Shown: positions 13,425 through 32,770, numbered from the stretch's first letter. The stretch is 64,000 nt of DNA from Candidatus Anstonellales archaeon (GCA_038869735.1 JAWCQO010000005.1:7538-71537), one strand, 5' to 3'. Program-made: numbers and translations. Notes: generated by a model not told the origin, from the sequence alone.

Positions 13425-16400
13425 GGGTAAGCAATCGCATTTTTGACGCTAAGGGCGGCGGATGAAGAATGCGAGCGCGTCGTGCGGTTGCGCGAGCGCT
13501 TTATGAGGATGAAGGGAAAACCGTAAGATTCACAAGAGAGTATGGATATGATATGCTGCTTTAGGCTTGGCAGGGGATAGCTTGGCTTGGGCAATATATC
13601 CGCCGTGGCAAGCAGCGAAATGCCCGTGGTAGGCGCAGGCTGCCTGTAATCACGGGGTTGCGGATTTACGCGGGGAATTAAAACATTCTAGTACCCGCAG
13701 GAAAAGAAAAAAATTTGATTTGGCTAGTAAGGGCGACTGAACGCCAAACAGGGCGACCCGAATAGTCCGTCGCGAGGCGGAAAAGATGTGGGACCGCAAA
13801 ATCTCTCTCTGTGGAGAAGAAACCTCTGGAAAGTGGTGCCATAGAGGGTGAAAGCCCCGTATTCGAACCGGAGAGAGACGAGGTAAAAAGAGTAGTGTCC
13901 ATTGGTGATTGGGCACAAATATGGCAGAATCAACTGCCAACCCTAAATATACCCCAAGACCGATAGCGTACAAGTAGCGCGAGCGAAAGCTGAAAAGGAC
14001 CCCGGGAGGGGTGTGAAAAGAGCTTGAAACTGTCAAGCCACAGTTTGATGCGGCCAAAAAGCGGTTTATGTCCTTCAAAGCAACTGCTGGAGACGGCAGA
14101 AGCGAGAAGGAAGTAGCATGGTTGCATCGTCCTTCTATAAGCAAGGGCCAGGGAGTTTTCCTCAACGGCGAGGCGAAAGCCGGAGCGAAAGCGAGTACTA
14201 ACGTGCGACAAGTCGTTGGGGAAAGACCCGAAGCCGATGTGAGCTATACGTGGGCAGGGCGAAGCCGGCCTGACGGCTGGTGAAGGCCCGCAACCAGTAC
14301 TAGTATATTCTGTTTGGGTGACCTGCGTATAGGGGTGATAGTCCAGTCGAACTCGGCAATAGCGGGCTCCTCCTGAAGTATATCTCAGTATAGCGGCGCC
14401 GGAGCATGTCATACAGGGTAGAGCACTGATTAGGAGGAATGGGCCCGAGAGGGCTCGCCTTCTTGTCAAACTCCGAATCTGTATGAAGCGTAGATGGTGC
14501 TAGTAGGCTTCTCTCGGGTAAGCCGAGAGGACTGTACGGGAACAACCGTTACCGCGGTTAAGGCCCCCAAATCTTGGCTAAGTGCAACTTAAAAGAGTCT
14601 CTGCTCAAAAACAGCTGGGAGGTAGGCTTAGAAGCAGCCATCCTTCAAACAACGCGTAATAGCGGACCAGCCGAGAGCGCAGATTCTGAAAATGCTCGGG
14701 GCTATAAGCCAAGTGCCGATACCGCGGAGTGGCGCATTATGTAGATGCGCGCAATCTGGTAAGGAGGCGAACCGGTTGGGCAGAAGCGCGGGCGTAAGCT
14801 CGCGTGGACCGGCTGGTTATGATAATCCTGGTATTAGTAGCAGCATATCCAGGTGAGAATCCTGGACGCCGGAAGCACGCGGGTTCCTTGGCGATGCTCG
14901 TCAGCCAAGGGTAAGGCGATCCTAAGCGTCGCGCTAATCGCAAAGACGCGAAAGGGAAACCGGTTAAGATTCCGGTTCCAGACGGATAGGTGCGGTAACG
15001 CGAGGGTGTCTTTCTGACGCTTTGGGGTAGGCTCAGTGGAGGAGACTCCATTTAAGCAGGATAGTTCTCTGGAGTCTAGTTGTTAGGAGAAGGAGAACAA
15101 ACTGCGAAGGCCACACGGTTGAGCTGACCCCTGGAGCCCGTGAAAAGGAAAGACACAGCGATTCCGTCTGCTCGTACCTAGAACCAGTACAGGTGGTGCT
15201 GGCAGAAAAAGCCAAGGCGTGGCAGGAGAACTCTCGTAAGGGAACTTGGCAAATTAGTGGCGTAACTTCGGGATAAGCCATGCCTGCGGTTCTCTAAAAA
15301 GGAACTGCAGGTCTCAGTGACAAGGGGAGACCGACTGTTTACCAAAAACACAGGTCATCGCTGAGCCGAAAGGCTGAGTACAATGGCCGATGCCTGCTCA
15401 CTACTGGTACGTCAAACTCCGGTCCAACGGAGCGAAGCGCCAGCAAAGAGCGGGGGTAACTCTGACCCTCTTAAGGTAGCGTAATACCTCGCCGCTTAAT
15501 TGGTGGCTTGCATGAAGGGCATAACGAGTCTCCCACTGTCCCTACGAGGGACCTGGTGAACTTACTACTCTGTGAATATGCAGAGGACTTCCAGGGGGAA
15601 ACGAAGACCCCGTGGAGCTTTACTATAGCCTGTTGTTGGAATGCGGTGATGGTCGCGGAGCGTAAATGGGAGCCGTTAAGCCGTACCTTTTGGGGTGCGG
15701 ATAGGCGCCGTTGTAACACCATTCGGCTGTTATTGCATTTCTTACCGGAAGGGACAGCGACAGGTGGATAGTTTGGCTGGGGCGGTACATCCTCGATAAG
15801 GAAACAAGGATGCCCAATGTTCGGCTTAGGTGCGTCAGAAATGCACCGTTAAGGGACAAGGACAAATGCCGGACTGACTGTATCCCTAAAAGCATCGGAT
15901 GCAGAGGCGAAAGCCGGGCCTAACGAACCTTGGTATCCCTTTTGATGAGGGTCCAAGCTGTCAGACAAGCTACCCCGGGGGTAACAGGCTCGTCGCGGGC
16001 GAGAGACGCCTATCTTTAAGTTTTTAAAAAAGAAGGTAGGTGCTCAAATACCCATCGACCCCGCGGTTTGGTACATCGCTGTCGGCCTAGGTCATCCTGG
16101 CGGTGCAGGAGCCGCCAATGGTTGGGTTGTTCATCCATTAAAGACCTACACGAGCTGGGTTCAGAACGTCGCGAGACAGTTCGGTAGTATCTCCTGGGAG
16201 TGCAAATCCGCCTGAGAGGAAGAACCCTTAAGTACGAGAGGAACTTGGGTTCGAAGCCTCTGGTGTACCGGTTGTGAAAAGCAGATGCCGGGCAGCTACG
16301 CTTTATGGGATAAGACCTGAAAGCATCTAAGGTCGAAGCTCATCTCAAAACGAGGCGGTTTGGCGGTCGTAGCAGACGACTTTGATAGGAGGGAGGTGTA

Positions 16401-16460
16401 AGAGCCAAGCGCAAGCGAGGCTTTCAGCCTGCCCCTTACTAAAAGCCAGATGTATATCAT
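13425..16460 (+). rRNA. 23S: 23S (large-subunit) rRNA; ends approximate to +/-50 nt
   Basis: 5'-domain matches include ggcggatgaagaatgcgagcg, gggaattaaaacattctagtacccgcaggaaaagaaa and ctggaaagtggtgccatagagggtgaaagccccgta. The peptidyl-transferase region has ctgggttcagaacgtcgcgagacagttcggt. The sarcin-ricin loop agtacgagaggaac is at about 16223. Confidence 0.85.
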
Positions 16461-16685
16461 ATCCATTCCCTCTTCTGGAGCTTGCGGTTTTCTCAAAATC
16501 CTTAAAAACACTTTTTTCTGAAGTTCTGGTGCTTGAATGTGTTTAGACTGGCTCTTTCTTGCGCTATCTAACTTCTAATCTTTGCTTTCTATAGTTGTTG
16601 CTGCCTATAGGGTAATAATATTGCCACAATATTGAAAACGAAGGATATAGGCTTCCTTGCGCTATCTGCCTCTAATCTTTGCTAT

Positions 16686-19600
16686 CTAAGTTTCCTCCTC
16701 GCATTTTAGCTGTTGATTTGACACAACGTTTGCAAAGACGCATGACTTGGAGATGTCAAGTCCGGGTTTACATGCTGGAACGTCTCTTCCTCTGTTTCCA
16801 TATATGATTGGGGTTACGTCTCTCCCTGCTACTTCCATTTTTGCATAGGTATGGTATACCTTTTCGTCAGGCTGAATCTGCCCGTCGAGATTGCTGTCCT
16901 CTTCGCTTGCTATGCAACACCTCATGGATGGAGGAAGTGACGCAAGATACTCAATGTACAGGAAGGATTCGTCTTGTTCTGTTTCTGGGTTGTTATAAGA
17001 CATATTCTGAATGGAGGGTGGTTCTTTTACCGTGCCGTCAGTATAAGTACACTTAACAAAATCTTGAGATTCGTCCCCATCGTAAGACGGATTTGTACAG
17101 AGTCTCTCGCTGCATACCTCTCTTCTTGCGCATAGAAGTGGGCATTTATAGCCGTAAGGCCAGTCATCTCCTGCTGGAATATCACACATAGAGCCATCTG
17201 CACAAATATTTGAAACGCCGGCTGTCTGCTCTGACTTTGTTCTTCTTTCACATGTGCACTTCTGGCTATCTGCAACCAATCTAACATAAGTCGTTTTTGT
17301 TGATAAGTCAACGGTGAGCCTTGAGGCGTTTTGAATCACGCAAAATGGCTGCTCCTCTGGAGAGAGAGTCTCATTAAAACCATAAGGTTGGAGTTCATTT
17401 CTTGGCTCATGGATTCCTATAATTCCACTGGAGGATAAGTTTGACGAGAGTTTTATTAGCTCCTGAATCAGTCGCGCCCTGTCTATATCTTGCCAGCTGT
17501 CACACTGAGGAGCCTCTGTTGCCCTTTCTCCAAAGTATATGAGGGATGGTAAGTTGAAATCCATAAGAAGCTTTCTTGAAGCGTTTGTCAAGTTTGTTGC
17601 CATCAGGAGCGCTTGCTCTTCCGGGGACAGCGCGCAGAACGACGGATTTCCTCCTGAATAATAAGCCATTTCGGGAATATAGGGCATTATGATTATCAGG
17701 TCAAGCTCTTTTAAAAATTCAGTGTCTATCGTACCTGGCGAGGGCGTGTGCACTACTCTTTTGTAAGTTATCCCGTTAATTGTTTGTACGTTTCCGTCTG
17801 CCTGCTCATTTAGGAGCAAGGCATAAGAAATTGCATTAACGTCTTGCATTGGAATAGCCTCGCCATCTAAAGTCGGTGAAACGCCTCTAAGGGCAGGAAT
17901 TATGACTGCAGTTAGGGCGTGAGGAAACTTGCGTTTGTAGTATATGACTTTGTTTTTTATGTCTTCTATCTTAGAGGTGTTTCGCAGAAGGTACTGTTGT
18001 CCGTTGTTGTTTAGAATTGTAACCTCTGAGAGGTTAATAGTGTGAAGAGCAAGTATTGTTGTTCCTTGGTCCTTTAGGTATTTTGCAAGATTTGCTGGAA
18101 GAAATGTGTCGAATTTGTTTTGTGGTGAGAGTCTACAGGAGTAATAGGAGTAACATTCTGAAGGATTGTGTTGCTCGCACCACCCGTTTGATGCACAGGC
18201 ACTACCGGTCCATTCACATGATGGAGAATCTTCGCATCGAAGCATGGTTTTGTCTTCGCAGTCGCCTATACAGGAAAAAGAAGTTACATTTGCTAAATAC
18301 GGAAGCGTGTTTGGAACAACAAGAATTGGAAGAGTGGAGGCTTTTTGATATTTTTGTATTTTTACATGGAGGTAGTTTGGGTCTGGCAAAAACGAGGGAC
18401 CTTGGGCAGTCATTGTTGGATGGGGTGATTGGTTGGGTTGTTCGTCTTGGACATACACTGTCACACCCTTTGCGTCTGTGTCGTTGTATGACTTAAAGGG
18501 AGAGGGAGGCGCACAGTCATAACAATATCCATTGGAAGCTGTGCATTCCCCATAGCTCTCGCTTTGAGTAAGGCAAACTGGAGTGTTTTGCTCGGTAGGC
18601 GAAATTTGTTGCACTGCACTGGTAGAAAGTGAGCAGGGCTCGCACCCTCCCCAAGAGTAGATGAGAAGTTGGCCTTCGCGCTCTGGGTCGGAAAGACAGT
18701 CTCCAAAAAGGATTTTTCCAGCATCTTGGCCTTCTCCTTGGTGTGGAGTGATAAGCACAAGGGTTTGGGTTCTTGTTGGTTCCCAGAAAAGTTCATGGGG
18801 CCACCAATCTAAACTGCCTCCCTCATGATCAAAGAATTTAAGCTCGAAAATAGTGAATGTGCCGTATCTTATGTGAAAATCAGTTCCAAGCCTCATGTTG
18901 CAGGCGCTAAGAAGTGGTATTCTTTGTTTTATTTCTTGTTCTGTGTAGTGGGAGTTGTACAGGACAGTATAGGCACGAGAAGTTTCATTAGAAGTCGTTG
19001 TTTTGGACATGTCTATCTCTAGCGGGCCTTCGAGTCTGTTGTTCTCGTACCAGTATCTGCAATTATAATGGTTATCGCCTATCTGACCAACTCCTTGTTG
19101 ATTTTCACCACTGCCTACTGAAATTGAGTGACAGATATACAGCGTATCAGACCACCTATCATTAGGGAATAGAGTTCTTTCATCTGGAATTGGTGGAATT
19201 GCTCTTTCAGGCTGTCCTTCGTATGGGCAGAAGTCTTGATTTCCAAGGCCTTGATAACCTCGGGAGTCTCCGTCTCTAGAAAATGAATAAGTATTGCCGT
19301 CAATTGTAGCAGTACAGCGAAAGGTTTGGGAACTGCCGCTGTTAGAAAAGTTGCCTCCTGTGCAAACATAACATGCTGAACCGACCGATGTATCTCGCGG
19401 ATGAATAGTAGCTCTCATAGGAAGTTTTTCGTTAGCAGAAAGAGCGTTTACCTTGCACTTTGTCTTTCCAAAGCTATCGATGTAGCAGCCGCAGTCAACG
19501 GGCGTTCCGTCTTTAAGAATGCATTTGTTGGTTGGGAGTATATTCTTGTTGCAGATGCCAGAGTAGCACTCCCCGTTTGATTGGCAAAGCGCACTTGCGC

Positions 19601-20981
19601 CCGGAATTATGTTTAGGATTTTTGAGTTGCGATTATCACACAGTTCTGGCCCTACCTGCTCTTCGTTGTCAAGCCTGTTGTTGGAATTTTCATCCAAGTA
19701 GCAAACGCAGCCTGGTTCTGGGCAGTAGCCGTTTGCTATTTCAAATTCGTATTGTTCTTTTATTTTGGAGATATAATAATCGGTGTCTATTTTTTTTGTA
19801 GTCTCTGTTGCGTAAAGCGTGCCATTGGGCCTTGAAATATTTAATTTTTCTTCTGTTGTTACATATTGACTTCTTGCTAAGAATGGTAGATATACTCTCT
19901 CATCAGCCTGTCCTGTTGGGAGAGAGCATGAACGCTGTGGGTAGCAATTATCCATGCACGCTCCTTTGCTTGAGTACTGCTTTCCTGTGCTGGCACAAGT
20001 CCACTTTATTCTCTTTACTATGGATATGTTAAACTCCTTTGTCCAGTGGCACTCGCCGCCGTCGCCGTATTTATAGTCCTCGCATGGTGTTCCCCTTAGA
20101 AGCTCATCTATGTTTGAATAACAGTTTGCTGTTATAAGTACACCCGAAGGAGAATTTACGGGGTGGGCTTCGCCCCATTTAGTTGTATACCCGATAAGGT
20201 AGCCTTTGAGTGGCCCTGATGCAAACTGCCGCTCAACGTAATTTAGATATCTGTCTTTTTGGTATTTGTTATAATCACTAAAGCCGCAGAAGACATCTGA
20301 GATGGGAGTATAAAGGCGCGCCTCTTCGAATGTTGAGAAATTGTTTGCGACTCCAAAGCGGAATGTGTTTATGAACGCTGTCGGAGACGACTTAAATTCC
20401 CTATTTGTCTCTTTGTTGAGTGGCTTGAAAGAACAGAAAGTTCCAAACAGCCCCTCCGGAACATCTGTAAAATCAAAAGAAGAAGTAGAGAAGGCGGTTG
20501 GGTTTAGGTCTTGTGGTTGGGGTAGTGCTCGGTCTCGTGCATTAAGGTAGTCAGACAAACTCATAGATATGCGTGGGTTATAGGAGGTCCTGCCGCAAAT
20601 CATTGCCGCGCAGTCTGGCGCTATACAGGGGTCAGATGGAATTTGGCCGCAAACGGGGATTTTGCTGTCTACACCATTGACACAGCCTGGTGGACACCAT
20701 TGAGGATTTCCATTTGCATCTGCTGGACAGATAGAAGGGTCGCAGTAATATGTGCAGTTTAGCCTTTCATTTTCGGGACCTAAATCTGATATGCTTGGGC
20801 ATTCAAGCCTCTGGCTTCCATTGAGGCTTAGAACATCTCTACATTGAAAGCTTGAGGTGTAGTTACCTGAAGCGCAACAAGAAGTGTATGCGGTTTGAGC
20901 AACGCATCCGACAAGAAAAAGGAGAGGGGATATCACTAAAATGAACGAGCCGATTGATGCCGAAACTGAAATCTTTTTCAT
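16686..20981 (-). CDS. Giant (1431 aa) secreted cysteine-rich protein. It is the last gene of the seven-gene surface operon. It has an N-terminal signal peptide and no C-terminal anchor.
   Basis: Start MKKISVSASIGSFILVISPLLFLVGCVAQ. Cys-rich throughout with many N-x-S/T sites. Only 4 nt separate it from the upstream gene. Confidence 0.75.
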   Translation of the reverse strand: MKKISVSASIGSFILVISPLLFLVGCVAQTAYTSCCASGNYTSSFQCRDVLSLNGSQRLECPSISDLGPENERLNCTYYCDPSICPADANGNPQWCPPGCVNGVDSKIPVCGQIPSDPCIAPDCAAMICGRTSYNPRISMSLSDYLNARDRALPQPQDLNPTAFSTSSFDFTDVPEGLFGTFCSFKPLNKETNREFKSSPTAFINTFRFGVANNFSTFEEARLYTPISDVFCGFSDYNKYQKDRYLNYVERQFASGPLKGYLIGYTTKWGEAHPVNSPSGVLITANCYSNIDELLRGTPCEDYKYGDGGECHWTKEFNISIVKRIKWTCASTGKQYSSKGACMDNCYPQRSCSLPTGQADERVYLPFLARSQYVTTEEKLNISRPNGTLYATETTKKIDTDYYISKIKEQYEFEIANGYCPEPGCVCYLDENSNNRLDNEEQVGPELCDNRNSKILNIIPGASALCQSNGECYSGICNKNILPTNKCILKDGTPVDCGCYIDSFGKTKCKVNALSANEKLPMRATIHPRDTSVGSACYVCTGGNFSNSGSSQTFRCTATIDGNTYSFSRDGDSRGYQGLGNQDFCPYEGQPERAIPPIPDERTLFPNDRWSDTLYICHSISVGSGENQQGVGQIGDNHYNCRYWYENNRLEGPLEIDMSKTTTSNETSRAYTVLYNSHYTEQEIKQRIPLLSACNMRLGTDFHIRYGTFTIFELKFFDHEGGSLDWWPHELFWEPTRTQTLVLITPHQGEGQDAGKILFGDCLSDPEREGQLLIYSWGGCEPCSLSTSAVQQISPTEQNTPVCLTQSESYGECTASNGYCYDCAPPSPFKSYNDTDAKGVTVYVQDEQPNQSPHPTMTAQGPSFLPDPNYLHVKIQKYQKASTLPILVVPNTLPYLANVTSFSCIGDCEDKTMLRCEDSPSCEWTGSACASNGWCEQHNPSECYSYYSCRLSPQNKFDTFLPANLAKYLKDQGTTILALHTINLSEVTILNNNGQQYLLRNTSKIEDIKNKVIYYKRKFPHALTAVIIPALRGVSPTLDGEAIPMQDVNAISYALLLNEQADGNVQTINGITYKRVVHTPSPGTIDTEFLKELDLIIIMPYIPEMAYYSGGNPSFCALSPEEQALLMATNLTNASRKLLMDFNLPSLIYFGERATEAPQCDSWQDIDRARLIQELIKLSSNLSSSGIIGIHEPRNELQPYGFNETLSPEEQPFCVIQNASRLTVDLSTKTTYVRLVADSQKCTCERRTKSEQTAGVSNICADGSMCDIPAGDDWPYGYKCPLLCARREVCSERLCTNPSYDGDESQDFVKCTYTDGTVKEPPSIQNMSYNNPETEQDESFLYIEYLASLPPSMRCCIASEEDSNLDGQIQPDEKVYHTYAKMEVAGRDVTPIIYGNRGRDVPACKPGLDISKSCVFANVVSNQQLKCEEET

Positions 20982-20985: not shown

Positions 20986-22026
20986 TCATATCACCTTTGA
21001 TATAGCTGAAGTAAGTTCTCCTAATTCCCCTCCAAGGAGTGGTGTTATTATGCGCACAAAAATAAGAGTTAGAGCAAAAGCAATAAATGGATAGTACATT
21101 ATACCGATGGTAAGGGTTGCAAGCTCTGATGAGAAGAGTTCAAATGTACTTCTGCTTATGTCAACGTTCTGGGTTATTGTTGAAAGTGTAACTGATGCGC
21201 CAGAAAAACCGGCATAGCATGCATTGAACACCTCTGTTTTTGGAGTGACGTCTATATCGCCGGATCCGTGAGCATATGCTGGATCCATAACGACATAGAA
21301 TGCAGGGAGTATAAAATAAAAGCCCATCGCAACGGCTATAAGAAGGCCTCCGGCCCCTCTTGTAAATTGAAATATTCGAAGGAGGATGCCAAGAGGAAGA
21401 AAAACTGACAGCATATTCTTCTCTATATAATCGAGGAAGATGTATTGCGCGTGTAGATGGATAAGGAGTGGAGTTATTTTTGAGCCAAGAAGATGGGCGC
21501 GCTCAACATCTCCACGCAAGAACCAGTCACCGCAGTAAACCTGAATGCCTACAAAGCTCAAACAAAATGCAGCTTGCTTTTCGGTTTCTTTGTTTTGTTC
21601 AAAAATTCTCTGATACATTTTGTCAAGAAAGTTTATTTTTTCCTGTATTCTGCACTTTGCAAAGGATATTGGGTTTCCGATTATAAGTCCGTTTTGGTCG
21701 ATTGAAAATGTTATCGGCTGTCCTCCACACTCTATTGCGGTATCTTGGCCTATTATTATTGCAATGGTGATAAATGCGGCTAGGTTGACAAGATTTATAA
21801 GCATGACTATGAGGATTGATGATGCAGATGCCTGAAGCATCTCTGAAATGGCCCAGCGCTTTATATTTTCAAGAGATAATGACCTTCCAATGACGTATAC
21901 TATTGTAAAGAAGAAAATGCATAGTGCTACTGCTGAAAGCGCAACGGCATTCCACCCAAGGCCTTCCCAGACGGAGATGAGGCCTGTGGTTGAGCCATAA
22001 GATTGGAGGATGTATGCGGGCTCCAT
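20986..22026 (-). CDS. Paralog P6 (346 aa) of the new 5-TM membrane family; minimal form with about 105-aa extracellular loop
   Basis: Core motif LPLGILLRIFQFTRGAGGLLIAVAMGFYFILP; C-terminal tail LLGGELGELTSAISKVI. Confidence 0.7.
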   Translation of the reverse strand: MEPAYILQSYGSTTGLISVWEGLGWNAVALSAVALCIFFFTIVYVIGRSLSLENIKRWAISEMLQASASSILIVMLINLVNLAAFITIAIIIGQDTAIECGGQPITFSIDQNGLIIGNPISFAKCRIQEKINFLDKMYQRIFEQNKETEKQAAFCLSFVGIQVYCGDWFLRGDVERAHLLGSKITPLLIHLHAQYIFLDYIEKNMLSVFLPLGILLRIFQFTRGAGGLLIAVAMGFYFILPAFYVVMDPAYAHGSGDIDVTPKTEVFNACYAGFSGASVTLSTITQNVDISRSTFELFSSELATLTIGIMYYPFIAFALTLIFVRIITPLLGGELGELTSAISKVI

Positions 22027-23037
22027 TCATATCAACCTCGATAATCTTCCTGCATCAACCTCTTGTCCTAACAATCCTGAAACCTGCGATATAGCCGCAA
22101 CAACAACAATAAGATTGATGGAAGTTATAAAGACTGAACCAAAGAATATTAGAGTTGCATTTTTTATAAGGAAGATAACGTCTGTACCTTCTTGGATTGT
22201 AGAGGAGTAAATCGCTGGAAAGAAAAGGCCCTCCAACATCAAGAGGAACGGAAAGAAGATGTAAAGCGCGACTCCAAGGCCTATCAGGGAACCTCCAAAC
22301 ATGCGCATAAATGGTATGCTGCGAAGTATGATACCCCAAACAAGGCAGAAGATGAGAAAGGAGTTAGTATAATCGGTGCCTACAAGAAGAATGTTATAGA
22401 CGCCTATCTGCGCAAGGATGGTAGCAAGGGATATTAGAGACGAGTTCATAAACAAAGTGAGAACTGCGTTGTGTGCCTGCACTCCGGATTCTGGATTTAA
22501 AGAAACTCCAGAACCCCCAAGGATGCAGAGGGTTTTGCAGTTCCATAGTGTGAGAGTCAATTTCCTTTCATTTAGGCCTATAATTTCGCGTAGATTATAA
22601 AACGTAGAATAGGAGATTGTTTGCATATAGACTAAAAACTTTTTTGCTGCAGTGTAGACGTTGTCTGACTCCTGAAAATCTACATTGGCTTGAGATTCAA
22701 TAGGTATCTGCGGAAGGTTGGTGAGCGTTACTGCGCTTCCTACCTCAATAGAGCAGAAGAGCGTCAAAATTTGGAGTATTAGTGCAATTATAATGGCAGT
22801 GCTGATAAGTTGCATAACTTCATCTTTTGACCAGGCCACTAGCCGAGGATAGCTGAGAAACTCTCCAGCAGCATATGTTATTGCTATCAGTCCTGCAAGT
22901 GCCGCAAATCCCGCGGTTGCGTAAGAGATTGCAGGCGAAAATAGATTTTGTGGCTGCTCACATATCGCTTGTTGGGAAAATGCAAACCCTCCGAGGGCAA
23001 GAACAAAAAATAATAGTGTGTTGTTTGTTCTTATCAT
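22027..23037 (-). CDS. Paralog P5 (about 336 aa). The likely start is at 23037 (MIRTNNTLLFF...), overlapping the P4 stop as ATGA; the longest ORF reaches 23097.
   Basis: Signal-like N-terminus; core motif ILRSIPFMRMFGGSLIGLGVALYIFFP; tail LLGQEVDAGRLSRLI. Confidence 0.7.
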   Translation of the reverse strand: MIRTNNTLLFFVLALGGFAFSQQAICEQPQNLFSPAISYATAGFAALAGLIAITYAAGEFLSYPRLVAWSKDEVMQLISTAIIIALILQILTLFCSIEVGSAVTLTNLPQIPIESQANVDFQESDNVYTAAKKFLVYMQTISYSTFYNLREIIGLNERKLTLTLWNCKTLCILGGSGVSLNPESGVQAHNAVLTLFMNSSLISLATILAQIGVYNILLVGTDYTNSFLIFCLVWGIILRSIPFMRMFGGSLIGLGVALYIFFPFLLMLEGLFFPAIYSSTIQEGTDVIFLIKNATLIFFGSVFITSINLIVVVAAISQVSGLLGQEVDAGRLSRLI

Positions 23038-24317
23038 TGCGACAACCTCACAAGGGTCGATATGTCTATTTGAGAGCCAAACATTGCTGCAAGCCACTGG
23101 ATAAACAGAAGCGTTATTGTTAGGTTCAGCGCAGTCGCAAATATGGAGCGCAGATATACTTGAAAGATGAGTGGTTCAAAGTTGTAAATGCTTTTGTTAT
23201 CGCCTATTTCTGTTTGGCCGATTAATGGTTCGATGAATTTTTCGCGTGTGCTTGCGTAGGAAAAATCAAATGGGTCGCATGTTTGAGTGCGAATCGTATT
23301 TGCAAGATTAGAATTTTGGTTGCTTCTGTAAGCTTGCAAGTACTCATTAGAGTCTAAAATTTCTCCAAAAAGAATTTTTTCTGAAAAAAGGAAAGTAAGC
23401 GGCAGGACAAGGTATAGCCCAGCTGCAAATGCTATTAACGTTCCACCTACTTTTCGCGTGAAGTTGAAAGTGCGAAGGAAGATTCCTATAGGAAGCAGGA
23501 TAGAGAAAGCATAATTCTTTGCAAAGCTCATGATAAGGAAAATTGCCTGAAAATCTGTAACAGCAAGAGACAATGATGTTGTCGCATGGGTGATGGAAGG
23601 GCGCATTGCATTTATGGCGGAACATGTGATTATTGAATACCCAACACCTAATATTGAGCAATAGCCGGATTTTGAGCCTTCTTGTCCCGATTTCTTTGAA
23701 ATTTCAAGATAGTTTGAGAGTAGGTCTTCGTAATTGCTCTTTACATCTTCAAGGGTTGCAAACGCGTAGTCATAAAATGTCCCCTCTACTTCTGCCCCAC
23801 CAGCTAAAGACTTAAATGCTGGGAGGAGAGAGGCGTCTAGATAATAAGCCATGCTAGTAAGAGAAGCTAGAATCAGTGCTGTAAAGATAAGTTGGGTCAG
23901 CTCATCTTTAGTATAGGTTTTTAGTTCAGTTATATTGAAGACGGAGCTACCCATATAAAGTAGCGATATTAATGAAGCGGAGATAAGAAAAGCTATGAGT
24001 ACTAGAGGAAGCCATTGTGACTGGCAACGGCAGTTAGAGCATGAGGCAGTTAAAGGACATCCGCCTCTTAGTTCTACTGCAGAAACTTCGCACTCCTCGC
24101 CTTGGTCAAGAACTCCGTTTCCACAGATTGGAAGCTGAACGTTGACGTTTTCTGCAATACATTCGCCGTTTTGGCAGATATAACCTTCTTGACATGGAGG
24201 GGAGCAGAGTGCAGCGTTTCCTCCTTCTCCAGCGGAGAAAAGAACAGCTGAGGCTAGGATAATGAAAAAGAGCTCAAGTATCAACGCCTTTTGTTGCTTC
24301 ATTTTGCTCCACATCAC
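23034..24317 (-). CDS. Paralog P4 (427 aa). It has a signal peptide, a small Cys-rich N-terminal ectodomain with one CGNGVLDQGEEC repeat, and the 5-TM core.
   Basis: ICGNGVLDQGEECEV. Core FLRTFNFTRKVGGTLIAFAAGLYLVLP. Tail AAMFGSQIDISTLVRLSQ. Confidence 0.7.
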   Translation of the reverse strand: MMWSKMKQQKALILELFFIILASAVLFSAGEGGNAALCSPPCQEGYICQNGECIAENVNVQLPICGNGVLDQGEECEVSAVELRGGCPLTASCSNCRCQSQWLPLVLIAFLISASLISLLYMGSSVFNITELKTYTKDELTQLIFTALILASLTSMAYYLDASLLPAFKSLAGGAEVEGTFYDYAFATLEDVKSNYEDLLSNYLEISKKSGQEGSKSGYCSILGVGYSIITCSAINAMRPSITHATTSLSLAVTDFQAIFLIMSFAKNYAFSILLPIGIFLRTFNFTRKVGGTLIAFAAGLYLVLPLTFLFSEKILFGEILDSNEYLQAYRSNQNSNLANTIRTQTCDPFDFSYASTREKFIEPLIGQTEIGDNKSIYNFEPLIFQVYLRSIFATALNLTITLLFIQWLAAMFGSQIDISTLVRLSQ

Positions 24318-26614
24318 AAAAATCTTGATATTCCCGGAAGTTCTATATCTCCTCCGAATGTTTGGGAAAAAACTCTAATGAATGCTATCAAGACAACTAT
24401 ATTAAAGAGTGGAAGAACGTAAGCAGGAATTGCAAGCACACCTACATTTTTTGTGTCACTCATGGTTGTTTTTGCTCCTGTCTGGCTGGATATAAAGCCT
24501 GCAGGGGTAAAATCGCGTGAAGCGGCGGTTGGGAGATTGCAAACTTCTGCACAATTTGTCCGTATTGGGGGTATTGTGGTGCAGTCATCATCACATTTGA
24601 GGCACGAAGTGCAAAGTGATGGCGGTGAGTCTGTTGTGAAATTGCTTTTGCATTCCTTGTTGCAATATGGTTCAAGGCAACTTGCGGGACAGTTTATGTC
24701 TCCAGCGTCTGCAACTCTGCACCTTTTTGGGCATGCAGAACATGTTCCGTCGGGTTGTGGTTGTATTGAGCCGTAGTTTTGACGAGTTGGAAAGTTTGCA
24801 CAGTTTTGAGAGGGAGAGGGGATCTGAATTCCACAATAAGCTCGACAGGCAACACAGGAAGGGTTGGTCCTACAATGTAATTGGAAGTAGTTGTCAGCGT
24901 CCTCATTGTCTTGGATGTTGGCGATGCGGCATTCGCGCTGGCAGCTTCCGCAAAGGGTAAGGCAGTCAAGTAGTTTTGGGTCTGGAATCCCTATCCTGCA
25001 GTTTGGTTCGTTTTCGCTTCTTCCCATTGGGCAATGTTCTTCTGTACATTCCTCGCATGCTTTCCAGACAGATTCTCCGTTTTCCTGCACTGGAAAGTCT
25101 GATGGCTTTGGAATTCTCCAATAGCCATCGACGGGGTCGTTTGGGTCATCATCTGACTTATCATCCGGATAAAGTGGATTGAAGTAATAAACACGACAAA
25201 AGTCTGGGCATAGTGTGCACTTGCCTTGGCATTCTGGCGACATATAACTGACTGAATTTATTATTGCACATCCAGATATATAGCAGCCATCTTGAGAATC
25301 TTCTATTCTATTTGCTCTGGAGCAAGTATTTTCACCAAATAACTGTTTGATTTCCTCCGGGGGGTCGGGTTTTTCGTCATCAGAAAAACATGTTGTCCTC
25401 TCGCGATAAGGGACATATGCTTGGTTGTCTGAATTCAGCTTACTTTTTCCTCCAACCTTACACTCGTCCGGGCAAGTGGAGCAAACGGCCCGTACATCAA
25501 CGTCCTTAACTATTTGACCTGCGTGTTCAGAGTCTTCTGCTATGAGATCTGATTTGGTGCAAGAAGGATTTTGGATAGGATAGGGAATTTCTCTACATAT
25601 GGAGGGACATGAGAGGATTACGGTTTGGCCAGTTATAGTCTCACCTTCTTGATTTACAACCATTTGATTTGTCAGTTGTCTCTTGCAACTTCCAAGCTCT
25701 TCGCAAGTGTTTATTTTCGGTGGGTTGAAAGTGCATTCTCCAGGACAATAATCTGGAGGTGGGGAGACCATCTGGTCTCCAAACACTGCAACTTTTAGAG
25801 TAAACCAAGAAAAGACGTAGAGCATTGGCCAGACTAAAAGCAGGGATATTCCGATTGCAAGTAAAAGCCCTCCTAATCTGCGCGAAAAGAAAAATGTGCG
25901 GAGGATAACTCCATAAAAAATGAGCACAGATGAAAGAGATGCTGACTGCGGGTTATTTGTTGAAGCCAGATTGGATAGAAAGCTTTTTTGGGTGGCAAGC
26001 GAAGAGTATATCCCTGAGAGAACATCGAAGTTGTATGAATATCTTTCTGTGTACATGGAATAGCCGGCATTTTTTCCTGAATAATAAGCGGCCCAGAGTG
26101 TGTAGTACGTGTTGGTAGACACTCCTTCTCGCTCAGAGGATTTTTTTGCATTTTCAAACGCATCTATGAGATTTGATTTTAGCGTTGAGTTTGTAATTGA
26201 AAGAAGCGAATCTAAGTAGCACAAACCAAGCGAGATTACATACGGCTGATTCTGGATGGGTTGGCAGGCAAATTGGCCTGCTGTTATTGATAGTAGAAAC
26301 GAAGAAAGGAACGAGAAAATAGCGATAAGAGAGATTATTATCAGAGCTGAAGCAAAGACTTGTGAGAGTTCTGTATTTGCCCAGACTTTTATTTCTGGGA
26401 TGTTTAGCCCTATCCCAACAATATATGCAATAGAAACGATGGATAAGGAGATGGCCAGCGCGATTATTGATGCCGATTGCCAATTTCCATTTCCAAGAAA
26501 TTGATTATATGTAAGATCTATGGGGGATAGCTGTAGGAGTGGCTGTGGGTACGAGAAAGTAGAGAATAGCAAAAGAACGAGGAGGATCTGCGTCTTTTTT
26601 AATTTTGTATTCAT
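24314..26614 (-). CDS. Paralog P3 (766 aa). The 5-TM core carries an about 420-aa Cys-rich ectodomain inserted between TM4 and TM5 rather than at the N-terminus.
   Basis: Core VILRTFFFSRRLGGLLLAIGISLLLVWP is followed by a long Cys-rich region. Final TM and tail: FIRVFSQTFGGDIELPGISRFL. Confidence 0.7.
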   Translation of the reverse strand: MNTKLKKTQILLVLLLFSTFSYPQPLLQLSPIDLTYNQFLGNGNWQSASIIALAISLSIVSIAYIVGIGLNIPEIKVWANTELSQVFASALIIISLIAIFSFLSSFLLSITAGQFACQPIQNQPYVISLGLCYLDSLLSITNSTLKSNLIDAFENAKKSSEREGVSTNTYYTLWAAYYSGKNAGYSMYTERYSYNFDVLSGIYSSLATQKSFLSNLASTNNPQSASLSSVLIFYGVILRTFFFSRRLGGLLLAIGISLLLVWPMLYVFSWFTLKVAVFGDQMVSPPPDYCPGECTFNPPKINTCEELGSCKRQLTNQMVVNQEGETITGQTVILSCPSICREIPYPIQNPSCTKSDLIAEDSEHAGQIVKDVDVRAVCSTCPDECKVGGKSKLNSDNQAYVPYRERTTCFSDDEKPDPPEEIKQLFGENTCSRANRIEDSQDGCYISGCAIINSVSYMSPECQGKCTLCPDFCRVYYFNPLYPDDKSDDDPNDPVDGYWRIPKPSDFPVQENGESVWKACEECTEEHCPMGRSENEPNCRIGIPDPKLLDCLTLCGSCQRECRIANIQDNEDADNYFQLHCRTNPSCVACRAYCGIQIPSPSQNCANFPTRQNYGSIQPQPDGTCSACPKRCRVADAGDINCPASCLEPYCNKECKSNFTTDSPPSLCTSCLKCDDDCTTIPPIRTNCAEVCNLPTAASRDFTPAGFISSQTGAKTTMSDTKNVGVLAIPAYVLPLFNIVVLIAFIRVFSQTFGGDIELPGISRFL

Positions 26615-29119
26615 TTACATCCCTATTTCAGAAACCTTACGGATTGCGGATGCAAACCCATGCACTGAGGTTATTATTATAATTATCGCGAGATTCGGAA
26701 GAAAAACGGCTTGTGGGAGAAGCAAGGCGAGCGTTTTAAAGGAAACGTGTGGGTCTGCAGCAATATAAAATGAATCAAGAACTTGGCTTGTTAGAGGATA
26801 TGTGTTTGCGAAGAGGGTATAGATTGCTGGAAATATTAAGTAAAGTGAAAAGCAGAGTGCCATAAGATAGTTTCCTGCGGTCCTGGTTGGTGGAAGGACT
26901 CTTAGAAAAATTGCAAAGGATAGGAAGAGTACTATTATTGGTTGGTTTTCTTGAGGGGTGGAAATGAAAAGAAGCCTAAATAGTTCTAACTGGAGTTTTA
27001 TGCTGACTATCATTGGTATGAGCAGGTCTATCATCACTTCCTGGGATTGTGAATACGCTCTCCTGATTGCGTCTTTTGATTCTCCTTTGCCACCTTTAAA
27101 TGGAATGCCAACAAAGAGATAGTTTGTTGCTTTGAGTTGATTAGTAAGACTACCTTCAGTTAGACGTTGAACTTCTGCCGTTCCGATTCTTTGAAGAGAG
27201 TCAAGGTATTTTGTTGAGTAAACGTACATCGTTGTACCTTCCGGGACATTTAAAAATGAGCCTATGACGGCGTTTGAGTTTTCAAGAAAGTTTGTTGCTA
27301 GAATCAAAACGGCAAAAATAGCTGACCAACCAAGATGCACTGCTTCGTCTCTTAGCAATATGTCAAGATGTACATTGCCTCCGAAATATTTTGAGTACAT
27401 AAATGCAAGGGCTATGAGCAGGACGATTAAAAAAAATGCAGAGTGCACCAGTGCAGCGATGTTGCCTGAGCTAGGGCAGTCCTGTTGACAATAGACAGGT
27501 TCTGCTCCTTCACATCTGCCGTTTCCACATTCAAATGATGTTTGGATGCACCTGCAAGAATAGGGGTCGCAACTAAACTTTTCACTACAGTTGTTTTCTA
27601 TTCCAGGATCGCACTCTTCGCCTTGGTCAAGAACTCCGTTTCCACAAAGCATTTGAGGAGGCTGTTTAGTTATTAAAACCTCCTTGCTTTCTTGCGCTGA
27701 GATTATGCTATCTGAATAGATAATCGACGCTTTAAACACCAGTGTTTTTCCTTCTGAGCAGGACTCATAGAGTGGGCATACTATTGACCTTGTTAGTTGT
27801 TGGTCTGCCTGTACTTGTGTAGAGCCACTTAACAGCACTTCGGATGAAGATTCTGAACGGATTACCCACTCCCACTCAAGACTTTGGGGGCTAACACCTT
27901 CTGGAGACGGAATGGTGATCCGTAATGATGGTGATTGTGACTCTGTGGCGGGGTTTGGCGTAATGTCAGAAAGAATTGGAGGGGGATGTTCTGGCACTAA
28001 TTCATCTATAGTAGCTTCGTCAAATGTTTCATTGGAGGTGTAGCGTTCTCCTTGGCCATAAGAAAGAGTTGCATAAAACCTAAGAGTTGAACGATCAGGG
28101 CAACCGTTATCCAGATTGAAGCAGTAGTAGGTTTGATATGAGTAATTTGTTGTTCCTCTTCTGTAGGCCTGTGTTCCTTGATGAATGGTTACACTCATTC
28201 CGTCCGGTTGCGTTAATTCGAAGCGCCAGTTTATAGTGTTGGGCTCAATGATGTTTTCAGGTATTGTGACGATTCCGTTAAAAACGTCTCGGGGATTCGC
28301 ACGTTTTGGTTTAATTGAAACTGATGGTGGGAGGATAGGTTCATAGTATGCATCGTCAGATTGAGAGTAATCAGTGCAAGCATAAACAGAGCATGCCCTT
28401 ACACGAACATGAACGTTTCTTGGTGATGAGGCTGAGCACCCTGGATAGTCTGAGCATCTAAAAGACATTGCTGATTGGCCCTCCATCCATGGAGTTTCAA
28501 AGTCTGGTCCGTCTCCAAGATAGGCAACCCACTTAAATTGATAGATAAAGTTACTTGCGTCTCCCTGTCCGGCAGTGACAAGTTGACATGAGGAGCGGCC
28601 GGATATTTGGTTGCAATAATTTCTATTTGCGACAGTGGCTGAATCTATTCCTGAAGTGTATCCTCTGCATCGAATGTTCCACGGAGGTCCACTTTCGCCT
28701 TCAAGCCCTTCATCTGGGACACAAGAGTTTGAGTTTACATCCCAGTGACAACCGGCGGGTTGCTCTTGAAGAAAATAAGGAGCGTTATAATCGCTATATT
28801 GGGCACTCAAAGAATTACAATTATTTTGGTTTAGGATACTGCATCTTGCTTGTGAATTTTGAGCTCCCTGAGCAAGCTGGCATAATCTGCTGGCAAAATA
28901 ACTCCCTGCTCGGCAGCCTCCGCTCCAGTCATTGCTTATGCTAACTGTTGTTGAATACGAAGGAATTGAAATTAGTGTGAGCTCTGGTTTTTCTGGAATG
29001 CCGGACACAACATTACCGCCTGCACCCTCGTCATCATCACCGATTATGCAATTTTGTGACATAAGAAATTGAGCAGCAAATACTAGAAAGAGCAGGATGA
29101 AACTATAGGGGCTTTTCAT
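26615..29119 (-). CDS. Paralog P2 (834 aa). It has a signal peptide, an about 520-aa Cys-rich N-terminal ectodomain ending in CGNGVLDQGEECD, and the 5-TM core.
   Basis: LCGNGVLDQGEECDPGIENNC. Core AIFLRVLPPTRTAGNYLMALCFSLYLIFP. Tail SAIRKVSEIGM. Confidence 0.7.
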   Translation of the reverse strand: MKSPYSFILLFLVFAAQFLMSQNCIIGDDDEGAGGNVVSGIPEKPELTLISIPSYSTTVSISNDWSGGCRAGSYFASRLCQLAQGAQNSQARCSILNQNNCNSLSAQYSDYNAPYFLQEQPAGCHWDVNSNSCVPDEGLEGESGPPWNIRCRGYTSGIDSATVANRNYCNQISGRSSCQLVTAGQGDASNFIYQFKWVAYLGDGPDFETPWMEGQSAMSFRCSDYPGCSASSPRNVHVRVRACSVYACTDYSQSDDAYYEPILPPSVSIKPKRANPRDVFNGIVTIPENIIEPNTINWRFELTQPDGMSVTIHQGTQAYRRGTTNYSYQTYYCFNLDNGCPDRSTLRFYATLSYGQGERYTSNETFDEATIDELVPEHPPPILSDITPNPATESQSPSLRITIPSPEGVSPQSLEWEWVIRSESSSEVLLSGSTQVQADQQLTRSIVCPLYESCSEGKTLVFKASIIYSDSIISAQESKEVLITKQPPQMLCGNGVLDQGEECDPGIENNCSEKFSCDPYSCRCIQTSFECGNGRCEGAEPVYCQQDCPSSGNIAALVHSAFFLIVLLIALAFMYSKYFGGNVHLDILLRDEAVHLGWSAIFAVLILATNFLENSNAVIGSFLNVPEGTTMYVYSTKYLDSLQRIGTAEVQRLTEGSLTNQLKATNYLFVGIPFKGGKGESKDAIRRAYSQSQEVMIDLLIPMIVSIKLQLELFRLLFISTPQENQPIIVLFLSFAIFLRVLPPTRTAGNYLMALCFSLYLIFPAIYTLFANTYPLTSQVLDSFYIAADPHVSFKTLALLLPQAVFLPNLAIIIIITSVHGFASAIRKVSEIGM

Positions 29120-31162
29120 TTATATCAACCTATAAAGACCAATTATTCTGGTATCGCCTCCAAGAACTTCTGATGTGCCTTTGGTCATTACGACCGTTAT
29201 AAAAACTGTTAAGAGGATGGATATTAGCGCATTTGTGTAAAAGCCAGATATTAGATGTAGAACTGATTCAAGAGGGGAGTAATAGTCTGAAATGAGCTCT
29301 GATTGAGATATTGCTGCATAGTTATAGAGTGCTGGCCCAAATGGAAGCGGGAATCCCTGCACAATTGCAAGGTAAGTTAGCTTTACTATGTTCGCACATG
29401 AAAAGAAGCCGCCTGCAGTGGCAGGATTTGACAGAAGAATACTACATATGAGCCACTCATAGAAGTCTTCTCCGGGTAAAACGAACAGCGCAAATGTAGA
29501 TGAACACACTAAACTTTGTGCTGGTGGACTACCGGGATCAAAATCAGTTGCATTTTTTATTGAGTTTAGGTCTAAGTTTGTTTGTGTATAGGCCCATGAG
29601 GCAAAAACGATACTGGCAGGAAACCAAAGATATGCTCCAATACACACAGCAATAAGGGTAGTACCTACCCTTCTTGTTAATGGAAATGTTCTTAGGGCAA
29701 ACGCAGCTGGTAGAAGAAGTGTTGGGATTGTTGATGAGAAAAAGTAAAGAAGCATTTTTTGTATTGAAAAGGCATATATTATTTTTGATAAATTATCCAA
29801 AGCTTGGAGGATGCTTGAGGTTAGGATAGATAGTCCAGCTGATGGAGAACGGGATATAAATTTATTTGAGTAAAACGGAATAAGTGGAGTGCTTAATGAA
29901 TAAGAAAAACTTGAAATCTTTGAAATGTAAAAGTTTACTTCAGCCAGATAGTTTATTGAATTTCTCGAATTCTGGATAAAGTAATCAATGTGAGAAATCG
30001 CAGCTGAAGTCATATCTGGAGAACCCGTAATCGCACTTGCAAATGTCTCTATTCCAGCTATAGCAATAATGGTGGCAATTATTAATGCTGCACTTGCAAA
30101 AACCTCTCTAAATTCTGATTTTGACCAAACGTGGAGTTGGATTGAGTTGGTAAATTCTGCAAGCATATAGGCAATGGCTGAAATTACGACGGCTGCAAAA
30201 AGACCTATTAGGATTATTGGTGAAATAGCGATTTGGACTGCATTGCCAAATAGGCGCGGGGCTGAAACGCACTGGCAACTTTCACAAATAAAGGCGTCTG
30301 CACATTGGTTGGTGTATTCACACTGTTCGTTTTCTTCGTCAATTATTCCGTTTCCACAATAAGGTGGGTTTGCTCTAGCCACTTCATTTACTGACACACA
30401 AGAACAGGAGAAGCATCTCTGACCGACTTGGCAGTCTGCATCTGAATCGCACTCTTCGCCTTGGTCAAGAACTCCGTTTCCACAGCTGGATGTGAAAGTA
30501 TAGGGATTGAAATCTCTAATTGATTCACATGTGCAATTTTGAGAGCATGTGTAGCCTGGAGCACAATTGTTTGTGTTTATGTCGCATTCCTCTCCAGCAT
30601 CTAAAAATCCATCACCGCACTGTGGTCCAAAAGCTATCTGTTCGGCTGTTGGGCTGCATTGGTTATTTAGGCAGGAATATCCTGCTTTACAATCAGCATT
30701 TGTTAGGCATGATGTTTTGCATGTGCAAGATTGCGAGCAGACGTATGCGCCACAGTTGAGGTTTTGTTCTTTGTCGCATTCCTCTCCAGCATCTAAAAAT
30801 CCATCACCGCATACTGGAAGGGAAGATACGCACTGGCAACTTAGAGGATCGCAGAGTTGTCCGCTTTTGCAGATTATTTTAGAATCAGCCGGGTCACACT
30901 GTTCCCGTCCCGTAATTTTTCCGTCGCCGCATACTGAGTTATCCTGTACGCACTGGCATCCGGGGTTACAGTAAAAGCCGAATGGGCAATCGCTGTGAAT
31001 TTCGCATTGCTCTTGTGGTTGCTCGACTATTCCGTTTCCGCATATGTGAGCAGGGGGGCTACTTTGAGCAAAGAAAACTCCGCTTGAAAGGAGAAGAGTG
31101 AAAAATAGTATGGCGAATATGGAGCGCTTGTCAAAAATCACAAAGCCAAGCATCATAAACAC
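29120..31162 (-). CDS. Paralog P1 (680 aa), first gene of the operon. It has a signal peptide, six DUF4215-like Cys-rich repeats in the N-terminal ectodomain, and the 5-TM core.
   Basis: Repeats CGNGIVEQPQEQCE, CGDGKITGREQCD, CGDGFLDAGEECD x2, CGNGVLDQGEECD, CGNGIIDEENEQCE. Core FALRTFPLTRRVGTTLIAVCIGAYLWFP. Tail LGGDTRIIGLYRLI. Confidence 0.7.
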   Translation of the reverse strand: MFMMLGFVIFDKRSIFAILFFTLLLSSGVFFAQSSPPAHICGNGIVEQPQEQCEIHSDCPFGFYCNPGCQCVQDNSVCGDGKITGREQCDPADSKIICKSGQLCDPLSCQCVSSLPVCGDGFLDAGEECDKEQNLNCGAYVCSQSCTCKTSCLTNADCKAGYSCLNNQCSPTAEQIAFGPQCGDGFLDAGEECDINTNNCAPGYTCSQNCTCESIRDFNPYTFTSSCGNGVLDQGEECDSDADCQVGQRCFSCSCVSVNEVARANPPYCGNGIIDEENEQCEYTNQCADAFICESCQCVSAPRLFGNAVQIAISPIILIGLFAAVVISAIAYMLAEFTNSIQLHVWSKSEFREVFASAALIIATIIAIAGIETFASAITGSPDMTSAAISHIDYFIQNSRNSINYLAEVNFYISKISSFSYSLSTPLIPFYSNKFISRSPSAGLSILTSSILQALDNLSKIIYAFSIQKMLLYFFSSTIPTLLLPAAFALRTFPLTRRVGTTLIAVCIGAYLWFPASIVFASWAYTQTNLDLNSIKNATDFDPGSPPAQSLVCSSTFALFVLPGEDFYEWLICSILLSNPATAGGFFSCANIVKLTYLAIVQGFPLPFGPALYNYAAISQSELISDYYSPLESVLHLISGFYTNALISILLTVFITVVMTKGTSEVLGGDTRIIGLYRLI

Positions 31163-32188: not shown

Positions 32189-32770
32189 TTATTTTGAAGG
32201 TGGCTTTGAGGCATAGTTTTTTAATACTCTGGTAAGGTGTAACAATGTTTTTCTTACGTCATTTTCGGACTGACAGCCAGTGCAGATTATCTTGCCGTTT
32301 TTAAAAAGAAGGAGAGAGGATTTTGGATTTTTGAATTTTAGGATTGCGCCTGGGAATTGCTCGGGTTCGTATTCTACGTCCTCTACTTCCGCAGCTATTG
32401 AATAAAGGTCAAGGTAAACGCCAAGTGATGCTGAAGCAACGATATTTTCTATCTTGAATTTTGGTTTTGCGTGTGTTTGTGGAGTTGTTTTTGCGTATGG
32501 TTTTAAAAGGTTCATTGTTCTGTTGACTGTTGTTTGGACTTGGGATTCTGACTGACAGCCCGTGCAGATTATCTTGCCGTTTTTAAAAAGAAGGAGAGAG
32601 GATTTTGGTTCTTTTAGCTTCAGGATTGCGCCTGGGAATTGCTCGGGTTCGTATTCTACTCCAGGTATTTTAAATGCTATAGAATAGAGGTCAAGCTCTA
32701 TGTTGAGGTTTGCGCTTGCGACAATGTTTTCTATCTTGAATTTTGGTTTTGGTATTCTTATTCCACTCAT
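32189..32770 (-). CDS. tbp: TATA-box binding protein
   Basis: Two direct repeats KFKIENIVASA.L...LDLYSIA....VEYEPEQFPGAILK...SSLLLFKNGKIICTGCQSE. Confidence 0.85.
   Translation of the reverse strand: MSGIRIPKPKFKIENIVASANLNIELDLYSIAFKIPGVEYEPEQFPGAILKLKEPKSSLLLFKNGKIICTGCQSESQVQTTVNRTMNLLKPYAKTTPQTHAKPKFKIENIVASASLGVYLDLYSIAAEVEDVEYEPEQFPGAILKFKNPKSSLLLFKNGKIICTGCQSENDVRKTLLHLTRVLKNYASKPPSK

Follow-up and report, generated by a model that had tools for sequence, protein, structure and literature searches.

Conversion among archaeal chaperonin paralogs is known, as are short, discontinuous conversion tracts in Sulfolobus acidocaldarius. Diversity-generating retroelements (DGRs) are known in some DPANN archaea. 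We describe here five short repeat patches in a 64-kb stretch of DNA from a Candidatus Anstonellales archaeon (the window). The patches lie in P1, P2 and P4, three genes of a seven-gene operon. Concerted evolution by gene conversion has been described in archaea for duplicated mtrA in methanogens (PMC4632066), and gene conversion equalizes genome copies in Haloferax (PMC11276520). CedA and CedE are homologs of VirB6, and Ced is an archaeal DNA-import system (PMC9905601, PMC11868833). Tandem, enlarged VirB6 paralogs occur in the Rickettsiales, with four copies in Anaplasmataceae and five in Rickettsiaceae (PMC7648143).

It is highly probable that the exact repeats in the window were left by non-reciprocal copying over very short tracts, as micro gene conversion or templated patch transfer, among copies of a 13-codon, Cys-rich motif of the DUF4215 or 'myxo_disulf' type. 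The motif copies lie in the extracellular parts of the ancient tandem paralogs P1, P2 and P4 and in two modules of P1.

Repeat patches

The five patches all read in frame on the minus strand, and each covers exactly the 13 codons of a DUF4215-type motif. The class A peptide is CGNGVLDQGEEC followed by D or E, in three copies. The class B peptide is CGDGFLDAGEECD, in two copies. The patches and the unconverted motif copies of P1 are as follows.

30446 to 30484, minus strand: class A patch in P1 module r5; 39 nt or 13 codons, CGNGVLDQGEECD; 39/39 with P2.
27608 to 27646, minus strand: class A patch in P2; 39 nt, CGNGVLDQGEECD; 39/39 with P1 r5.
24087 to 24125, minus strand: class A patch in P4; CGNGVLDQGEECE; 37/39 against P1 and P2, with the exact stretch at 24097-24126.
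30580 to 30619, minus strand: class B patch in P1 module r4; CGDGFLDAGEECD plus 1 nt; probable donor.
30772 to 30811, minus strand: class B patch in P1 module r3; CGDGFLDAGEECD plus 1 nt; probable acceptor.
30317 to 30358, minus strand: unconverted motif copy r6 of P1, CGNGIIDEENEQCE.
31001 to 31042 and 30893 to 30931, minus strand: unconverted motif copies r1 and r2 of P1.

The 29-nt core of class A, TCGCCTTGGTCAAGAACTCCGTTTCCACA, has exactly three copies in the window (both strands searched, up to three mismatches allowed). They lie at 24097-24125, 27618-27646 and 30456-30484, all direct and on one strand. Shuffled sequence gives an expectation of 0.00 matches. A first-pass annotation of this DNA had reported the same core in P4, P2 and P1, and all three copies were recovered; its position for the P1 copy (30454-30482) was 2 nt off. 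The 39 identical nt that it reported between P1 and P2 are the maximal exact repeat of that pair (27608-27646 = 30446-30484). Between P4 and P1 the maximal exact repeat is 30 nt (24097-24126 = 30456-30485). Over the whole motif, P4 is the same as P1 and P2 at 37/39 nt. Inside P1, the maximal exact repeat (class B) is 40 nt (30580-30619 = 30772-30811). The annotation had this repeat and its 192-nt spacing right but gave the length as 38 nt.

Identity ends at the motif edges. The 60-nt flanks of P2 and P1 r5 are identical at 8/60 and 18/60, and the flanks of P1, P2 and P4 range over 8-20/60, which is random. The annotation had taken confinement of the identity to short cores, with flat flanks, to count against gene conversion. 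Such confinement is what was found, and conversion is not refuted by it; the tracts are just very short. An antisense open reading frame (ORF) over the P1 repeats (30567-30974, plus strand) was also dismissed; it lies inside a conserved coding gene and has no counterpart in P2 or P4.

Peptide selection and codon preference could in principle have given the same codons independently. The motif is strongly constrained in the protein and near the DUF4215 consensus, and P1 scores above the family threshold. The codons speak against such convergence. Given the same peptides and the codon usage of the window, the chance of the same codons is about 1.5e-5 per pair (1e-5 in round figures) and 6e-10 for three copies, which excludes convergence quantitatively. 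The two motif classes use different codons at 8/10 shared residues, even within P1. The variable interior VLDQ is also identical among the class A copies, though the orthologs described below have QIDA, IVDI and RIDE. We give convergence practically no credence.

Comparison with a related genome

The related genome GCA_040960315.1 carries the same operon (locus L002) in the same chromosomal place, adjoining Dus and TBP. Its orthologs are named Q1, Q2 and so on. Protein identity is 59% for P1-Q1, 53% for P2-Q2, 67% for P3-Q3 and 58% for P4-Q4, and the six membrane proteins of the operon fall at 53-67%. The L002 motif differs at all five orthologous positions.

P1 r5: window CGNGVLDQGEECD; Q1 CGNGQIDAGEQCE; 26/39 nt identical.
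P2: window CGNGVLDQGEECD; Q2 CANGIVDINEQCD; 25/39 nt identical.
P4: window CGNGVLDQGEECE; Q4 CGNQRIDEGEQCE; 27/39 nt identical.
P1 r3: window CGDGFLDAGEECD; Q1 r3 CGNGQAEGNEQCD; 6/13 aa and 21/39 nt identical.
P1 r4: window CGDGFLDAGEECD; Q1 r4 CGDGFLKTGEECD; 11/13 aa identical.

Copies of the same class in the window are identical at 37-39/39 nt. The five L002 positions are identical to one another at 21-29/39 nt, and orthologs match each other at the motif positions at 21-27/39 nt. The nine L002 motif copies are 61-80% identical, with no exact repeat among them. They do have microhomology: TGCGGAAACGG is common to three copies and GAGCAGTGCGA to six of the nine. Between the window and L002, identical residues use identical codons in 41% of cases, and the longest such run is 6 codons, against 13 in the paralog patches.

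The paralog-specific flanks of the motifs are kept between window and L002 orthologs. Since the flanks are conserved between orthologs and random between paralogs, the modules were already paralog-specific before the lineages split. Over a bounded tract, synonymous sites included, the paralogs are more alike than the orthologs. This is why we read the patches as gene conversion, and the concerted evolution proposed in the first-pass annotation is borne out by the same figures. Because L002 carries five different motifs at the orthologous positions, the homogenization took place in the lineage of the window, after its split from the L002 lineage. No synonymous change has built up in four of the five copies, which indicates a recent conversion.

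Polarity can be read in P1. The converted sequence agrees with Q1 r4 at 11/13 residues and with Q1 r3 at 6/13, so r4 was probably the donor and r3 the acceptor that was overwritten. For class A the donor cannot be named because no ortholog resembles the converted sequence; each matches it at just 7-8/13. P4 retains Q4-like GAG for its first Glu and GAA as its final codon. Its tract thus ended before the 3' end of the motif, was patchy or mutated later.

The first-pass annotation had offered recent duplication as another origin, with a tandem duplication of about 190 bp in P1. In this account the modules, or the P1 unit, were duplicated and the cores have not yet diverged. Two identical 13-codon units do stand 192 nt apart in P1, and extra similarity follows them (33/60 nt, plus a 16/21 patch encoding CSQ(N/S)CTC). 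At a lag of 192 nt, however, only 95/192 positions (49%) match, with a concentration in the 40-nt patch. Modules r3 and r4 are also distinct orthologous modules in Q1, where the r3 motif is different. The flanks of P1, P2 and P4 are random among paralogs and conserved between orthologs. The paralogs are one-to-one in distant Micrarchaeota and older than the divergence of these. Synonymous sites of a 13-codon island cannot stay frozen while their surroundings randomize. Recent duplication is contradicted by the ortholog comparison, for which orthology and synteny with L002 are supported, and we regard it as very improbable.

Two more distant operons of the family have no exact patches. A search with the P3/Q3 alignment in genome and metagenome contigs gave pattern matches but no confirmed one, and so no relative of intermediate divergence. 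The spacers before Q6 and Q7 in L002 (19905-20052 and 21124-21177) contain short tandem repeats of the GGTCTTG type. These are absent from the window, where the corresponding genes abut.

Proposed mechanism

The motif ends, TG[CT]GG.AA[CT]GG... and ...GA.[CG]A.TG[CT]GA (about 10 nt), are the sole microhomology between the diverged genes. These ends could serve as anchors for strand invasion or for a template switch in replication. A short heteroduplex or template switch anchored in this way would copy the variable interior, and the patch would coincide with the motif. That the tracts end at the motif ends would follow from these conserved ends being the only microhomology available. P1 r6 shares a 12-nt 5' end, TGTGGAAACGGA, with class A. 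A microhomology anchor can therefore exist without conversion of the interior.

The conversion was most likely neutral or nearly so, and it homogenizes rather than diversifies. The direct repeats that result are expected to be long enough to break short-read assemblies and would in principle permit unequal crossing-over.

A second case of concerted evolution lies 1 kb away. Over 206 nt, the two halves of the TBP gene (32189-32770, minus strand) have 82% identity, including uninterrupted identical runs of 47 and 38 nt. Identical residues of the halves use identical codons in 76% of cases within the window genome and 75% within L002, against 51-56% between the genomes. The TBP repeats evolve in concert in both lineages, which fits a lineage with active intragenomic copying.

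Several points weigh against micro gene conversion. A single relative lies at a useful distance, the class A donor is not named and the dating is no finer than after the split and recent. That donor possibly sits elsewhere in the genome, beyond the window. Classical RecA/RadA-type conversion is usually taken to require longer tracts than these 27-40 nt, which are flanked by only about 10 nt of microhomology. The enzymology would be that of either a RadA-dependent short patch or a replication template switch. The two differences of P4 need a patchy tract or later mutation. Three other operons of the family have no such patches, so the conversion is sporadic.

Strain-level genomes and database searches

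An independent metagenome-assembled genome (MAG), GCA_038849675.1, is 99.92% identical to the window, with 9 mismatches and 1 gap in 22 kb. It carries all five patches. The strain-level MAGs have the same motifs, and the two whose DNA was compared have the same gene arrangement. P4 in a Logan assembly has the same motif as the P4 of the window. A sister MAG, GCA_038868935.1 (JAWCSB010000006.1; 3001-3614 of locus L010), has a contig that ends inside P1, 40 nt past the r4 patch. By that point it reads as the sequence normally found after the r3 patch. Either the assembly graph looped, broke or was misjoined at the 40-nt repeat, or the 192-nt unit is really present in an extra copy. The break agrees with a warning in the first-pass annotation that the repeats may cause assembly errors.

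Window positions 19120-41156 differ from JAWCPP010000002.1 (GCA_038870215.1) at 6 single bases in 22,037. The differing bases are 24755, 26011, 30124, 34218, 34987 and 37093, none of them inside a repeat patch.

The patches could also be an artifact in which a short-read assembler collapsed similar motif copies in the consensus. The source is a short-read MAG, the sister assembly is disturbed at the 40-nt repeat, and the window and the deposited contig have their 6 differences in 22 kb. Collapse requires shared flanks, however, and there are none. All five patches are identical in GCA_038849675.1, which comes from another sample, and the Logan assembly agrees at P4. Every copy is in frame with its Cys pattern kept. 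An assembly or consensus artifact is extremely unlikely.

The exact 39-mer is absent from 185,579 GTDB species-representative genomes (0 matches), and the exact 29-mer is absent from JGI metagenome contigs (0 matches). The sequence is therefore not a widespread element, and these searches added no further relatives. RNA structure at the patches gave no signal (z = +0.55 and +0.77). These results bear on the possibility that the 39-mer is a selected nucleotide element, such as a recombination site at which ectodomains would be swapped or deleted in frame in a programmed way, or a site with a regulatory or RNA-binding function. All copies have the same orientation and codon phase, so that recombination would give in-frame chimeras, and the sister contig has an r4-to-r3 junction. 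Yet the orthologous operon does not conserve the sequence, and no recombinase, transposase or reverse transcriptase gene is among the 37 ORFs scanned. The two full-length strain MAGs whose DNA was compared do not differ in gene arrangement, and the proteins at strain level have their full length. Because each paralog is conserved one-to-one over deep time, chimeras formed by deletion should be harmful. Such an element is quite improbable.

Cassette-like diversification of the ectodomains, which the first-pass annotation had also suggested, is not borne out. The copies became more alike, all are direct, the scanned ORFs lack the enzymes named above and the strain-level MAGs have no recombinant variants. 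A DGR, shufflon or transposon was rejected on the same ORF scan.

The seven-gene operon

The window is archaeal by gene content (23S rRNA, aIF5B, ProRS, Nop56/58, TBP, Dus and PheRS-beta). P1 is the protein on record from MAG GCA_038870215.1 of Candidatus Anstonellales (Micrarchaeota, DPANN). The repeats are hosted by seven minus-strand genes that form a tightly packed operon.

29120 to 31156, minus strand: P1, 678 aa at the NCBI start (the ORF runs on to 31162); a signal or transmembrane (TM) segment, six DUF4215-type Cys modules, then a polytopic membrane core.
26615 to 29119, minus strand: P2, 834 aa; the membrane core, preceded by a large N-terminal ectodomain and one DUF4215-type module.
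24314 to 26614, minus strand: P3, 766 aa; the membrane core, no converted patch.
23034 to 24302, minus strand: P4, 422 aa; the membrane core, preceded by a short, Cys-rich ectodomain that has one module.
22027 to 23037, minus strand: P5, 336 aa at the NCBI start; nothing beyond the membrane core.
20986 to 22026, minus strand: P6, 346 aa; nothing beyond the membrane core.
16686 to 20981, minus strand: P7, 1431 aa, with 73 Cys and just one hydrophobic segment, at the N-terminus; it closes the operon.

The polytopic membrane core is common to P1-P6 and has the invariant positions E, L-R, R, G, L and P. P3 has a Cys-rich ectodomain of about 430 aa inserted ahead of the last TM segment. Pairwise identity among P1-P6 is 21-27% aa over the shared membrane domain, as low as the first-pass annotation had found it. 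One-to-one orthologs of P1-P6 occur, with order kept, in two distant Micrarchaeota loci (L004 and L007). The six paralogs therefore predate the divergence of distant Micrarchaeota. The Cys modules are missing from the P1, P2 and P4 orthologs in these two loci. P7 orthologs hold the last operon position in L002, L004 and L007.

P1 reaches curated thresholds for both DUF4215 (PF13948; 30.1 bits, cut-off 27) and TIGR02232 (25.3 bits, cut-off 20.8). It does so at the r1/r2 stretch (30893 to 31042). P2 and P4 gave no hidden Markov model (HMM) match to either family at E <= 0.1, despite their CGNG...GEEC motif and Cys pattern. Literature searches on DPANN and Micrarchaeota found no description of the operon.

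Membrane core family and possible link to Ced

Word-index protein searches with P4 and with the core alignment of the six paralogs gave 4-5 proteins. An exhaustive HMM search of 1.84 billion cluster representatives (50% identity) revealed a family of 2807 representatives at E <= 1e-3. Every sampled member that carries a name comes from Micrarchaeota or 'Parvarchaeota', and the labels are 'hypothetical' or, for a large member, a CARDB domain.

Pfam gave no consistent family for 54 members and no TrbL/VirB6 match. CedE and CedA are the only recurrent family matches, all well under curated cut-offs. CedE matched weakly in 5/54 relatives (best E 4.2e-5) and CedA in 3/54 (best E 1.6e-4). P4 itself matched CedA at E = 4.6e-4 and 19.8 bits, far below the cut-off of 330. 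A profile search against PDB sequences gave 0 matches even at E <= 10, and Foldseek against the PDB gave nothing significant. The fold was compared with the solved VirB6 protein TrwI (7o3v), and a second model, that of P6, did not reproduce VirB6 as the top match. The proteins are therefore not assigned to the VirB6 family. A CedA/VirB6-like relationship is kept as a remote-homology lead suggested by these weak profile matches, and membership is not established.

A P-loop ATPase of 499 aa is encoded at 42848-44347 (minus strand). It matches CedB (8.8e-25) and VirB4-like CD1110 (4e-21) ahead of HerA (6e-15). CedD and TraC also match better than HerA, and all scores are below cut-offs. Upstream, at 44349-45125, lies the gene of a 258-aa protein that has TM helices in its N-terminal part, and downstream that of an unannotated, coiled-coil-like 238-aa protein. 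The cluster at 42142-45125 (minus strand) may be a motor like that of Ced or a type IV secretion system (T4SS).

This CedB/VirB4-like ATPase lies 11.7 kb from the operon and outside it, and no pilin was identified. The operons of L004 and L007 have no P-loop gene on record adjoining them. Tentatively, the six order-conserved, CedA/VirB6-like paralogs and the giant, secreted, Cys-rich P7 (about 1,200-1,450 aa) might form a hetero-oligomeric membrane platform derived from or analogous to a T4SS/Ced channel. It might serve DPANN cell-cell contact or the uptake of DNA or metabolites, perhaps with the ATPase 11.7 kb away. We hold this platform to be doubtful. If it were real, the micro-conversions would mark co-located, co-evolving ectodomain modules of different subunits.

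Other features of the window

A perfect 86-nt tandem repeat in three copies (10444-10702) runs from the end of the Nop56/58 gene to the start of a metallophosphoesterase gene (ATG at 10647). Every copy includes a GGAGG-ATG start region, and the 86-nt length is not divisible by 3. Either the sequence was triplicated very recently or the assembly has looped here.

An AT-rich gap of about 1.3 kb (56858-58193) has no ORF of at least 120 aa, and the 2 kb at 56001-58000 have a GC content of 34%. It contains a 33-nt tandem duplication (57614-57679), and the GC skew flips sign near 58 kb. The gap may be a replication origin, or the genes may simply change strand here. The neighboring ORFs scanned include no Orc1/Cdc6 gene.

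Another Cys-rich surface protein, of 462 aa, is encoded at 61764-63152 (minus strand). Its C-terminal domain matches the eight-cysteine-cluster model TIGR04289 'heavy_Cys' (48.9 bits, cut-off 50). It also matches a model of a CGP-CTERM-anchored Cys-rich protein. The 23S rRNA gene (13546-16462, plus strand) stands alone, with no 16S or 5S gene nearby. A 91-nt tRNA (52424-52514, minus strand) was given a 4-base anticodon by ARAGORN and probably contains an intron.

Significance and comparison with known systems

The repeats are a clean, internally controlled example of how short archaeal conversion tracts can be (27-40 nt). Conserved peptide motifs can thus serve as microhomology islands that let very old paralogs exchange sequence. 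In practice, exact repeats of 39-40 nt suffice to break or misjoin short-read assemblies of P1. The operon contains order-conserved, unannotated membrane proteins of Micrarchaeota with a possible Ced/T4SS link. The wider value of the finding lies in this operon; the molecular basis of cell-cell interaction in Micrarchaeota is largely unknown.

The modules resemble DUF4215 (PF13948) and TIGR02232 'myxo_disulf_rpt'. They have the form CG[ND]G-x4-5-[GN]E[EQ]C[DE] followed by four more Cys, and the homologs found for P1 are mostly DUF4215 proteins of Patescibacteria, DPANN and Myxococcota. They differ in that the P1 repeats are fused N-terminal to a polytopic membrane protein, that P2 and P4 fall below the HMM thresholds and that distant orthologs of P1, P2 and P4 are without modules.

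Like the repeats of DGRs, shufflons and cassettes, those of the window are short and lie within genes that encode surface-exposed domains, in this case Cys-rich ones of a DPANN archaeon. Unlike DGR repeats, they are exact and not adenine-mutated, they are 39-40 nt long against about 100 nt and no reverse transcriptase is encoded by the 37 ORFs scanned. Unlike the repeats of shufflons or inversion cassettes, the three class A copies are direct and none is inverted, and no recombinase was seen in the same ORFs. The effect in the window is homogenization and not diversification.

In organization, the closest analogy is with the VirB6 paralogs of Rickettsiales. Both sets are tandem polytopic paralogs in one operon with large, surface-exposed, repeat-bearing extensions, and the organism is likewise probably host associated with a small genome. 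Unlike VirB6 and Ced systems, the operon of the window is without an ATPase, pilin or relaxase gene. It has six paralogs and a giant Cys-rich protein in fixed order.

As in known conversion systems, a bounded tract is closer between paralogs of one genome than between orthologs, with identity at synonymous sites. The transfer is likewise non-reciprocal, with a recognizable donor in the case of r4 to r3. Unlike those systems, the tracts of the window are extremely short (27-40 nt) and join genes that are otherwise unalignable there (about 25% protein identity elsewhere). They also coincide exactly with a 13-codon motif whose conserved ends give the only microhomology. The patches are a new example of a known process, and the conserved seven-gene operon is the more unusual object.

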